Shown: one piece after another, positions 13,027-47,521 of the stretch
Layout: the number at the start of each line of letters is the position of its first letter
How positions within the stretch are numbered: position 1 is the stretch's first letter
Assembly (NCBI GenBank): GCA_000004695.1
Contig: CM000151.3
Location: 3,584,001 to 3,648,000, forward strand
DNA: 64,000 nt
Origin: Dictyostelium discoideum
Lineage: Eukaryota
Reading direction: 5' to 3'
Made by a program: the position numbers and the translations under genes
Notes under the pieces: generated by a model
Database searches by the model: none
Seen by the model: the letters and a program-made list of their open reading frames with translations, nothing else
What the model was told of the DNA's origin: nothing

Positions 13027-16000
13027 ATGAAATTATTTGAAAAGATTCAAGTTTTAATTTTAATATTTGTTTCAAATTATTATTTTATAAAATTTTCAAA
13101 TTGTCAAATAATTAATATTTATGATTTATCAAATAATAATTCGTATATTAAACATCCACAATCCACAAATTCCTATGCATGTAAATTCGAGGTTTATTTA
13201 CTTTTCAATGTTAGTCAACAGGATATTGGAAATGACCATTTGGAATTATTTTACAATGATCCAATTGTTACTTTATTAGATGTCCTTGTTTCAAATTCAA
13301 GTATCCTTTCTTTAATGTCATTGCAAGGCGATCCTGGATACATTGGAGTACAAGTTTTTAGTAGATTTTCTTTAAATCATTCAATTAATAACAGTATTAG
13401 CCTTAATTTTATATGTCAAGGTAATCATTTTTATTTTTTCTTTTTTATTTTATTTTTATTTTTATATTTTAAAAAATTACTATTTTACAGATTCTAATAA
13501 AAAAAAAAAAAAAAAAATTTTATTTATTTTTTAGCAATTGATTACACTAAATTGGATTATAAGTTAATGGTTAATAATAGATTTAAAAGATCAACTTCAA
13601 ATTATGGAGGTTATTTACAATTTACTTCAGAATACCCTCTTGGACAATTAGAATATTCAAGTAATACCAGTGGGGTTTTATCAAATACCATCGAGAATAC
13701 TGCAAATCTAGCAGGTGGATCTTTGATGTATAACTTTAGAGATAATTTATCAGTTTCTGTAAATTTTGTAGGAATATATAATAATAGTATCTATATCGAG
13801 TATCCCTCATTATATTATACCAGTATGTATTTATTTTTAATTGTTATTATTATTATTATTATTATTATTATTATTATTATTATTATTATTATTATTATTA
13901 TTATTATTATTATTATTATTATTATTATTATTATTATTATTATTATTATAGTTATTAACTTTTTTTTTAGATATTGATGTAAATTCAAATAATTCAATAG
14001 TAACTATGTATCCAAATCAAGTAACACAATATAATGAATTTGGGTTTGGATGTCCACCTCTTTTTACTATTACAATTAATAGAACAACTGACGAATATCA
14101 ACCATATTTTTATGTTTCTTTAATAAACGGTTTGGGTACTGGTAATATTCAAATCTATCCTTTATATGAAATTAATAAAATGGCAACATATATTGGTATG
14201 TTTGATGGTGCAGTAACTCCATCATATTATACTCTATTTTCTCAATCTGATAATTCTCTTACTGAAATCTATAAAGTTGAAAATTTAACTGTAACCAGTA
14301 AGTTTATTTTTTGAAAAATTAAAAAAAAAAAAAAAAAAAAAAATTAATATTAAAACACACAAACTAATTAATTAATAATTTTAGAATTAAAAAAACAATC
14401 TTTTTCAACTGTTGTTATTGCAACTTATTTACATGGTAATAATGAAACGTTATACAATTCATCAATGTATACAATTTCATTCAATAGTGGTATTTTAAAG
14501 CAGGTTGATTTTTTCCCAACAGTTTATCGTTTCCAATCATCATCATCTGTAATTTTAAATTGGCCATTTGGGTTTGAAAGTGGTCAGAATTTTAATTTCA
14601 ATTTTAAATCATCACATCTACAAAATTTATTTTCAATCAATAGCATAAGCTCATTTACCACCGATAAAAACATTTCAACTACTGTACAATCAGATATAAA
14701 GAGTAATTTTAACAATATTAAAATTAAAAAAATCATTATGATTAATTTTTTAATTTTTACTAATTTATTTATTTTTAATATTTTTTTGAAAATGTAATAG
14801 TAACTCCACAAGAACCATTTAATGTCCAACTTTTAAATTTTGAATTATTTTATCTCTTTAATGATAATTATTTGTTAAGATTTAAAATAAAAAAAAGTTC
14901 ATTTGATTATTTTATAGCACTTAAAGGTTTTTCAAATATTTTAAGGTATGAATCAATTGTAGAAGAAGATAATGAAGTAGTGGTTTTTGAAACAGTTTTT
15001 GACTTTTTTAAAAATTATGGGTTAGGAAATTTTTACATTTTCGATTCATTAAATAGAATGAAAAGTTATTTAGTTAATAATTATTATTCAACGGACCCAC
15101 TTGCAAAATATTCAGAACCATCAGAGAATTTAAATAATTTTTTAATTGAAAATGTATCATTCAAGTATAACTATATCGATGTAACAAATAAATCAGCAAC
15201 AAATGTAATTTACTTTAATTATAATGGTACAATTGATCCAAATAGATTACCTTATTTTTATTTAACTGATACAGTATCCTATAGTGATATTAGTAATATT
15301 CAATATGATTCAATAAGATATGCAATATGGAATTCTACACTTTTAAAATACCAAGTTGAATTTACAATACCAGCAAATATCCAACCTGGTTCAGTTCCTT
15401 ATTTAATAATTTTAAATTATCGTTCAAAATTATCAAGTGAATTCTTACCATTGTCAGCACAATTATTTGTAACATCAGAAAGTAAGTTATTAAATTTCTA
15501 ATAATAATAATAATAATAATAATAATAATAATAATAATAATAATAATAATAATAATAATAATAATAATAATAATAATAATAATAATAATAATAATAATAA
15601 ATTATTACTTTTTTAAAATATCTAAATATCTTATTTTTGTTTTTATTTACTACTATTTAGATTATGATGGATATGGACCAATATTTAGTAATATTGAAAA
15701 GGTTAATTCAACAAATGAATTTGGTTGGAAATTTACAATAGATGATCCAATTAATGGTTTTGATTATGCTGATATTATAGTTAGAGGTGAAATGGATAGT
15801 TCAACTTATAAATTTCATTTAACAACTCAAAATTTAACAAGAGGTGATAAATTTAATGGTGATTATCAAATTAATATCACTATATCAAGTAGATGTGCAT
15901 CTCAAAATTATATTATCACACAAGTTAAATTATATGATACTCAAGGTAATGCTTGTAGATTTTCAGTATCTGAATCATTTAGTGGTGGTATTAGAAATCC

Positions 16001-45900: not shown

Positions 45901-47521
45901 AAAAAACAATTACCTTGTTGATTACTAATTTGCGTTAAAGAATGATCTTGATTGAAATAAAGTGAGTTGTAGGGATTTACAGAGATTTCAGATTGTAGAA
46001 ATGATGACTTGAATGAATAATTTGAATTATGACCACTTTCGAAACCAAAAGGCCATTTATAACTATTTGAAAAACTTTCAAACCATCTAATTGAATAATT
46101 GAATAAATCAAATTTTTTAGTTGAATTAAATTTAATTGAAAATATTGATGAAAGTGAAGGTAATGGTGGTGAATAATCAATTTGAAAAGATGGAAATTTT
46201 CTATCAATATTATCTATATATTTAAAAAACAATAATAATAATATTATTAAAATTATTAACAAAAATGATTTTTTAAAATAATAAAAATAAACAATAATAA
46301 AAAAAAATAATAATAATAATAATAAACTTACATGAGACCTTTAAAAATTGATAATAAATTGTAGTTAAGGTGCCATTAATTTGAGCACCAATTGAATAAT
46401 CGGAAGAAACTTGACCAAGGAATGTTGTACCTTTTCCTGGCATTTCATAAGATGCCCATGGATTTAAACCTATATTTTCATTAATAAACAATGGGTCGCT
46501 TAATCCAATTGTTTCATTTAATGTAATAGAATAAATTGGTGGACAAATAAATCCAAATTCTATAACATTTGTTTGATTAGGATAAATTTTAAATGTAATA
46601 TCCTTTTCTTTTACATTTGAATCTGAATTTTTAAAATTATAATTTAATATATTAATTTTTAAAATAATAATAATAATAAAAACAATAATAATAATAACAA
46701 TAATTACTTACTTGAATAAATTAAACTTGGAATTGTATAATTTAATGAATAAGTATTATTTGAACTATCCATGAACCATAGTGATATATTAAAATCTGGT
46801 TTAATAAATCCATTAAATTCGTCACCAATATGATAGACAAATGGCCTTATATTATCAACTTTTACATTATACGGTTTGTCAACTTGTAATTGACCCAATG
46901 GGTATTTTAATCCTGTAATGTACATTATTGTTGAAAATGGGTAAATTGGATGCTTATATTTACCAGTATGATATAAATTTATTTTCATTGATTCTCGTGG
47001 AATATCTATTTAATTTATTTAATTATTTAATTAATTATTTATTTAAATTTTTTTTTTTTTTTTTTTTTTTTTTTTTTTTTTTTTTTTTTTTTTTTTTTTT
47101 TTTCTTAAAAAAATAATCAATACAAACATTGACAAGAATAATTAATTATAATACTACTATAAATTGATGTATCATTATCATATTCTGCCGTAATTAATAA
47201 TGAATAATCATTTGGTGATTTAGTATTTACATAAATTGGAAGAACTTGACTTGAAATATTTTTAAATGCTGGTGTTGAAATTGTTGCGTCTGAATCGTTG
47301 GTTTTTATTTTTAATTGAACTCCAGTATCTGAAGTATCGGTTACAAATATTAAGAAAAAAAAATTACAATATTTGTCATTTGTATTTGTTGGATATTTAT
47401 TATATGAGTATTCTTCACTAGAAACATCATAAATTTGAATTGCTGGATTTCCTTCAACCCTAAAAATTTGTAATATTACTATTATTATTAGAATTAATAA
47501 TAGTATTCGTTTTCTGATCAT
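42926..47521 (-). CDS. tgr-like type-I transmembrane receptor, copy E (apparently intact, more divergent N-terminal modules). Exons 47521..~47120, 46988..~46704, ~46491..46273, ~46262..45879, ~45841..42926.
   Basis: Signal peptide MIRKRILLLILIIIVILQIFRVEG. Modules end ..YSCQCLY and ..WPFGFESGHNSNYSFK. 968-aa last-exon ORF 42926..45832 carries an extra (TPTE)4 linker (44018-44070, 12-bp tandem gtttctgttggt). The EGF-like module is CLGEPVCGGSKQGFCSSSGCICYPPWIGNDC. The TM/tail is identical to copy C/D type (..KNRKSDLFQRKVQNKLQKMN*). Confidence 0.8.
47046..47103. repeat. Poly(T) homopolymer tract of ~55 nt in an intron of copy E.
   Basis: Directly visible. Generates the spurious ORF 46928..47116. 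Confidence 0.9.

Follow-up and report, generated by a model that had tools for sequence, protein, structure and literature searches.

Positions 13027 to 47521 of a 64-kb window (the whole stretch of DNA analysed, ~22% G+C, from chromosome 2 of Dictyostelium discoideum AX4) are filled exactly by five multi-exon paralogs, here called genes A to E. We read the locus as a birth-and-death tandem array of ComC-type genes, in which each gene joins a variable head to a stalk homogenised among the copies and whose products would act in cell adhesion or communication; we put the probability of this reading at roughly 0.6. An initial annotation had described a 34-kb array of five paralogs of one architecture, with A on the + strand, B to E on the - strand and A and B convergent, and had assigned it to the Tgr receptor family. 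The gene models bear out this layout, with A and B tail-to-tail and C, D and E head-to-tail. The family supported by the domain content is the ComC type; the assignment to Tgr is wrong.

The array is real. The reference genome already carries annotations of its genes except E, which is annotated only in a newer lab-strain assembly (GCA_054883475.1, an AX-lineage assembly 99.8% identical to the window). A tblastn search with protein C returned five full copies and no more, plus two fragments, none of them outside 13027-47521. The spliced translations of A to D exactly match AX4 records (XP_644336, XP_644339, XP_644341, and XP_644342.2, respectively), each named "EGF-like domain-containing protein." For A, C, and D, the two AX4 GenBank accessions of each gene hold the same sequence, and those of B (EAL70414.1 and EAL71159.2) are one residue apart; these paired accessions place the locus in a duplicated segment of chromosome 2.

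Gene A (13027..17879, +) encodes 1408 amino acids (aa) in six exons (13027-13420, 13535-13822, 13971-14297, 14385-14702, 14801-15481, and 15661-17879; protein P0010). Gene B (22161..26989, -; annotated model P0011) has six real exons (26989-26599, 26520-26242, 26115-25801, 25721-25419, 25261-24539, and 24397-22161) and a premature stop. The remaining three genes have five exons each: gene C (29046..33571, -; 1380 aa; P0004) at 33571-33166, 33062-32763, 32691-32401, 32295-31999, and 31894-29046; gene D (34473..38976, -; 1378 aa), whose homology model is exactly its AX4 record, at 38976-38571, 38497-38201, 38137-37847, 37753-37457, and 37318-34473; and gene E (42926..47521, -; 1395 aa), whose homology model is intact and free of stops, at 47521-47128, 47005-46712, 46622-46332, 46213-45914, and 45834-42926. 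All introns are GT..AG, in phase 1, 63 to 179 nt long, and 4 to 22% G+C, and exons 1 to 4 encode ~95 to 135 aa apiece. In an AlphaFold2 (AF2) model of gene C (aa 1-683), strand clusters follow one another along the chain, and each of the exon junctions, at aa 136, 236, 333, and 432, lies in a loop that separates two of them. The serial ~100-aa, exon-encoded Ig-like modules proposed initially are thereby borne out, and a "one exon, one module" reading of exons 1 to 4 holds in the predicted structure.

All five proteins match the Pfam families DUF7035, DUF7034, DUF7949, and ComC_SSD (PF22933) above gathering thresholds and in the same order, with DUF7035 and DUF7034 upstream and DUF7949, a 35-aa EGF-like module, directly before ComC_SSD; precomputed annotation adds DUF8390. 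ComC_SSD scores 61 to 67 bits in A, C, D, and E and 46 bits in spliced B, against a cutoff of 24, and among 33 relatives 28 to 33 match each of the family domains. A hydrophobic N-terminal leader in each protein is a putative signal peptide; it is a predicted helix in the AF2 model of C and passes the hydrophobicity threshold in E only. Each protein has one strong transmembrane segment near its C terminus, followed by a 20-aa basic tail, and a sequence scan finds 28 to 35 N-glycosylation sequons per protein over lengths of 1378 to 1408 aa. The sequons and the predicted topology together indicate type I membrane glycoproteins.

The predicted layout of each protein runs from the signal peptide through about nine Ig-like beta-sandwich domains, a Thr/Pro linker, DUF7949, and ComC_SSD to the transmembrane segment and the 20-aa tail. 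The linker, which is mucin-like and Thr/Pro-rich, lies in the ectodomain before the EGF-like module. AF2 models of gene C are all-beta, both for aa 1-683 (predicted local distance difference test score [pLDDT], 82.3; predicted template modelling score [pTM], 0.74) and for aa 433-1380 (pLDDT, 77.7), the latter ending in a C-terminal helix that corresponds to the transmembrane segment. Structural matches of these models include LILRB3 and protocadherins, but the matches are generic to the Ig-like beta-sandwich, in which an E-set/IPT topology is not separable from FN3, I-set, or cadherin-like topologies. At the level of fold class, then, the Ig-like beta-sandwich of the initial annotation stands, as do its EGF-like module, transmembrane segment, and short tail in all five proteins, with the signal peptide remaining putative.

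This layout of putative signal peptide, EGF-like module, and transmembrane segment agrees with the ComC record, in which ComC has a signal peptide, a transmembrane helix, and EGF domains and is restricted to group 4 dictyostelids (PMC4931340). Mutants of comC are reported to aggregate aberrantly (PMC2873529). Among proteins carrying the ComC domain, the array genes have a single EGF-like module, whereas relatives P0065-P0067 have extra teneurin-type EGF repeats.

A codon alignment of genes A to E divides each gene into variable and nearly constant parts. Across the heads, the first ~720 alignment columns (~700 aa), A, B, C, and E are only 15 to 50% identical in amino acid sequence, with synonymous divergence (dS) of 0.7 to 1.9, which is saturated. 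By contrast, two sharply bounded blocks are 94 to 100% identical at the nucleotide level in all five copies, with dS of 0.05 to 0.10. Block 1 is the DUF7035 core (columns 721-800), located at 15663..15960 (+) in A and, on the - strand, at 24395-24098 in B, 31199-30902 in C, 36623-36326 in D, and 45133-44836 in E. Its mean nucleotide identity is 96 to 99% among A, B, C, and E and its dS is 0.07 to 0.10, against 40 to 65% nucleotide identity immediately upstream, and its start in A and B coincides exactly with their extra intron. Block 2 comprises the EGF-like DUF7949, the ComC supersandwich domain, and the juxtamembrane region (columns 1121-1440), at 16758..17775 (+) in A and, on the - strand, at 23270-22265 in B, 30140-29150 in C, 35567-34577 in D, and 44047-43030 in E; it is 94 to 100% identical, synonymous codons included. 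In family members elsewhere in the genome, block 2 is only 45 to 66% identical.

To follow these blocks between strains, we used one wild D. discoideum assembly, GCA_054859355.1 ("ACTFIW"). Over the 843-nt EGF-to-supersandwich block, paralogs diverge by 1.4 to 2.5% within AX4 and by 1.5 to 3.9% within ACTFIW, whereas AX4-ACTFIW orthologs diverge by 2.8 to 4.5%. Paralogs within a genome are thus closer to each other than orthologs between genomes, indicating concerted evolution of this block; the shorter DUF7035-core block gives a mixed paralog/ortholog pattern in the same comparison. Interlocus gene conversion, confined to part of the gene, explains the near-identity of both blocks, the inverted copy A included. 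Bounded gene conversion is of a known evolutionary kind; we did not find it described in the literature, although no dedicated search for it was made.

The strain comparison also indicates that the genes are maintained. Ortholog dS is mostly 0.05 to 0.13, with outliers in E exon 4 (0.018) and B exons 3 and 4 (0.24 and 0.28), and the ratio of non-synonymous to synonymous divergence (dN/dS) is 0.23 to 0.9, mostly 0.3 to 0.5; flanking genes give dS of 0.05 to 0.10 and dN/dS of 0.11 to 0.39. C exon 2 has a single value of 1.28, on 17 substitutions (3 synonymous and 14 non-synonymous). None of the six ACTFIW copies contains a stop, and these copies together with the ortholog dN/dS indicate genes that are kept and are not hyperpolymorphic in the manner of tgrB1/C1. 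The orthologs are under purifying selection, and the head sequences are paralog-specific yet conserved between strains.

Copy number and spacers differ between the two strains. The array gains and loses units, as seen in its two C/D-type units in AX4 versus three in ACTFIW, two relics of family members, and a nonsense allele of B. The A-B spacer measures 233 bp in ACTFIW and 4.3 kb in AX4, and the long AX4 spacers 17969-22170 (A-B) and 39122-42691 (D-E) are absent at those positions in ACTFIW. Neither relic was found in ACTFIW, nor was any counterpart of the D-E spacer 39122-42691 with its importin pseudogene. Part of the A-B spacer, AX4 19702-21474, which contains the open reading frames (ORFs) 20314-20571 and 20809-21231, has an inverted match in ACTFIW to a 774-aa gene upstream of A, indicating transposition or inversion between the strains.

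Gene D is a tandem duplicate of C. The initial annotation had called C and D near-identical 5.4-kb units; they are indeed duplicates with a period of ~5.43 kb, but the repeated part is the 4.5-kb gene body, which is 93.3% identical in DNA over 4580 columns (29045-33582 versus 34472-38987) and 91.5% identical in protein, and the C/D spacers do not align with each other. Differences between the two copies in module 2 (columns 121-240; ~33062-32763 and ~38497-38201) amount to 40 non-synonymous versus 6.8 synonymous (dN/dS, 1.6), and those in the fifth and sixth modules (columns 481-720; ~31750-31200 and ~37170-36620) to 18.5 versus 1.5 (dN/dS, 3.2). These values suggest that the heads diversified after the duplication. 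We do not claim positive selection after the C/D duplication, the counts being too small.

How such a mosaic might work can be outlined. Each paralog would owe a binding specificity of its own, for a cell-surface or environmental ligand, to its variable distal domains, and the constant stalk and tail would engage a common partner; homogenisation would then be tolerated or favoured in the stalk and resisted in the heads. The role we propose, by analogy with ComC, is developmental cell-cell adhesion or communication. Several points weigh against it. The searchable literature gave no expression, localisation, binding, or mutant data for the five genes, and searches by accession and on comC function yielded nothing beyond table entries and citations, so that function here is an inference from architecture, and the 20-aa tail, which contains no recognisable motif, argues against autonomous signalling. 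The link to ComC comes through the Pfam ComC_SSD domain rather than an alignment with ComC itself, the packing between domains in the AF2 models is uncertain, and the comparison with ACTFIW is a single strain pair. Finally, dN/dS between paralog heads is 0.5 to 1.0, values that a relaxation of constraint, in place of specialisation, could produce.

The alternative that survives best keeps the proteins at the cell surface and changes their task: they may be structural or matrix glycoproteins anchored in the membrane, or innate-recognition receptors that bind prey or ligands from the environment, rather than agents of cell-cell communication. A long, heavily glycosylated ectodomain that includes a mucin-like Thr/Pro linker, followed by a minimal tail, would suit such proteins, and the conservation of paralog heads between strains is as compatible with ligands that are fixed, non-self, or environmental as with developmental partners. 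What speaks for communication instead is indirect. ComC, the only characterised supersandwich-domain protein, is reported to act in developmental communication (PMC2873529), and the presence of a Dicty_CAD cell-adhesion gene inside the array adds a weak argument from association. We consider this alternative doubtful but worth keeping in view.

A more specific version of the adhesion/communication reading is equally tentative. The array could be a germline-encoded repertoire of recognition receptors, in which each paralog bears its own head of six to seven Ig-like domains and the stalk (DUF7035 core, EGF-like module, and supersandwich) is actively homogenised by bounded gene conversion to fit one shared co-receptor or signalling partner. 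Dictyostelids would then have, besides Tgr and independently of it, a second cell-recognition system, linked to the ComC pathway and variable in copy number among strains.

Membership in the Tgr family, as polymorphic allorecognition receptors like TgrB1/TgrC1, is largely refuted. That family is defined by IPT/TIG domains (PF01833 / IPR002909) in the ectodomain (bioRxiv 10.1101/2025.10.22.684067, 10.1101/2025.08.01.668227). A Pfam scan found no match to PF01833 in A to D or in the ACTFIW ortholog of E (P0001) at E<=1, none in the last exon of AX4 E at E<=0.1 (E exons 1-4 lay outside the scan), and none in any of the 33 family members at E<=0.05. The Pfam check proposed for the spliced proteins therefore recovered the EGF-like module but no TIG/IPT, and in its place the DUF7035/DUF7034/ComC_SSD set. 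A search of the PDB with the family profile likewise returned no IPT-containing structure, only marginal EGF matches. About 70 homologues are all dictyostelid (Dictyostelium plus one Polysphondylium violaceum protein) and carry the name "EGF-like domain-containing protein," not tgr.

The resemblance to Tgr is nevertheless broad. Both groups are dictyostelid-restricted type I proteins of Ig-like beta-sandwich repeats, and in both the genes are clustered paralogs among which pseudogenes, rearrangements, and interlocus gene conversion occur; tgr clusters similarly show duplication, relics, gene conversion, and copy-number change (bioRxiv 10.1101/2025.10.22.684067, 10.1101/2025.08.01.668227). The Tgr family has ~60 paralogs in addition to TgrB1/TgrC1; the array proteins differ in lacking a detectable IPT/TIG and in having the EGF-like module and supersandwich stalk. 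The array genes are also tandem or convergent, with none of the divergent head-to-head pairs on a shared promoter that are typical of Tgr, though not universal there. In this one strain pair, moreover, orthologs are 90 to 95% identical, with dS equal to that of flanking genes and dN/dS mostly <0.6, unlike the hyperpolymorphic TgrB1/C1; hyperpolymorphism is a trait of the allorecognition role rather than of family membership.

A link to the Tgr family persists in two short relatives, P0081 (D. dimigraforme) and P0082 (D. discoideum ACTFIW), in which a genuine TIG domain stands directly before the EGF-like DUF7949, followed by ComC_SSD and a transmembrane segment. Their EGF-like module, ComC_SSD, transmembrane segment, and tail are ~50% identical to the array stalk, but they are only 520 to 546 aa long and have no nine-domain head. 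The ~50% identity suggests that domain shuffling has set different heads on the same stalk. The beta-sandwich before the EGF-like module of the array proteins (C aa 918-1016) was considered as a cryptic TIG and rejected; hhalign comparison with P0081 and P0082 was not significant (E, 0.16 and 0.037; probability, <=1.4%). The whole-family profile aligns to P0081 only from residue 170, past its TIG domain. Taken with the missing IPT/TIG, the different domain set, and the PDB result, we reject Tgr membership.

The initial annotation also counted two copies with disabling lesions, but only one is seen. Gene B carries an in-frame TAA at 22937-22935 where A, C, D, and E, as well as the B ortholog of ACTFIW, have CAA. 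The AX4 annotation of B excises a 72-nt "intron" (23005-22934) that includes the TAA, yielding a 1391-aa product. This "intron" is atypical (GTACAA..TAAG; 18% G+C; a multiple of 3 in length), and in all the paralogs the stretch homologous to it is coding. On sequence grounds, the TAA is an AX4-lineage nonsense allele. The two copies of B, P0011 and P0076, differ by C12F and are equal in length and gene model, from which it follows that the stop is bridged in both. Full splice modelling of A, D, and E, together with reading in three frames, revealed no second lesion, and the spliced ORFs of D and E are intact at 1378 and 1395 aa.

Gene E is without a protein record in the AX4 GenBank/RefSeq set, where it may be annotated as a pseudogene or left unannotated. 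It is 95% identical to P0001, its ACTFIW ortholog, and the identical 1395-aa model is called in the independent assembly GCA_054883475.1. A decaying, largely non-functional pseudogene cluster left after a family expansion would account for the nonsense codon of B, the two relics and foreign pseudogene in the spacers, the missing E record, and a paralog-head dN/dS of 0.5 to 1.0. We think it very improbable, since 4 of 5 genes are intact in AX4 and 6 of 6 in ACTFIW, ortholog dN/dS is mostly 0.23 to 0.6 with normal dS, the splice sites are canonical, and E is called as an intact gene in the newer assembly.

Purifying selection of extreme strength, or duplication of whole genes in the very recent past, is a similarly poor account of the constant blocks, for although conservation peaks in these blocks in distant paralogs as well (45 to 66% versus 20 to 30% at the N terminus), their near-identity includes synonymous codons (dS far below that of the heads), their edges are sharp, the inverted copy A shares in the near-identity, and paralogs of the EGF-to-supersandwich block, if not of the mixed DUF7035 core, are closer within each genome than orthologs are between them.

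Clustered protocadherins and LILR/KIR arrays in animals likewise consist of tandem paralogs with diverged distal Ig- or cadherin-like domains and a shared membrane-proximal or cytoplasmic part. The Dictyostelium array differs in that its constant part is encoded in every gene and kept alike by gene conversion, not shared by splicing; there is no sequence homology to the animal clusters, and the fold matches are generic.

The practical value of this analysis is one of correction: the Tgr assignment, though plausible, fails the domain test, and there is one lesion instead of two. The array domains already have Pfam entries, as domains of unknown function. The mosaic of variable head and constant stalk and the strain differences in copy number and spacers were not found in the literature, with no dedicated search made. 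Should the family turn out to share ComC's part in cell-cell communication, this compact locus, which could be deleted as a whole, would lend itself to the study of surface-recognition diversity in dictyostelids outside Tgr and of gene conversion confined to part of a gene.

Both family fragments of the initial annotation, placed there at 21770-21960 and 40290-40625, are present, with slightly different limits. Relic 1 (21758..21946, +) is a B-type piece of the pre-EGF beta-sandwich on the strand opposite to B (tblastn match to C aa 954-1015), and its translation closely resembles the matching B segment as judged by eye. Relic 2 (40290..40622, -, or by narrower limits 40332-40622) is a C/D-type fragment (C aa ~568-672; tblastn 55% identity, E 5e-21) that an internal deletion joins to a "GGYYSGYSSESL" piece, with frameshifts and three stop codons in frame.

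The importin-alpha pseudogene said to interrupt the array was confirmed at 41231..41976 (-). It is truncated to about ARM repeats 2-7, colinear with importin alpha-7 residues 125-361 (PDB phmmer E 2e-34), and has an Arm Pfam match; the IBB domain and the C-terminal ARM repeats are missing, and it carries one in-frame TAA near 41898 and one frameshift near 41746. A 179-aa ORF with no Pfam match (41900-42439, +) overlaps it on the opposite strand. The peptide STLQLPYLIQN is common to this ORF and to the minus-strand reading of 41266-41231, which likely reflects a small inverted duplication inside the D-E spacer.

Between B and C, an unrelated gene is embedded, a Dicty_CAD (DdCAD-1-like) cell-adhesion paralog whose last exon lies at 28459..28695 (+; Pfam E 3.5e-29); two other assemblies have a gene of 100 to 106 aa called in this position. 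The 64-kb window contains no tRNA genes, so nothing points to tRNA-targeted retroelements.

Outside the array, two long ORFs at 5328-10050 (+) apparently form one HPS5-like gene, with a beta-propeller of HPS5 and, after it, a RING finger of the Vps8 type, and are ordinary flanking content. On the other side, adjacent Cys-rich ORFs at 55322-55999 (-) and 56497-57351 (-) share a common N-terminal motif and signal-peptide-like N termini and have no Pfam match; they may represent a small secreted-protein family. Downstream of the array, a local duplication is seen in the tandem, highly similar flavin amine oxidase paralogs at 57808-59034 (-) and 60879-62084 (-) (Pfam Amino_oxidase, E ~1e-38).

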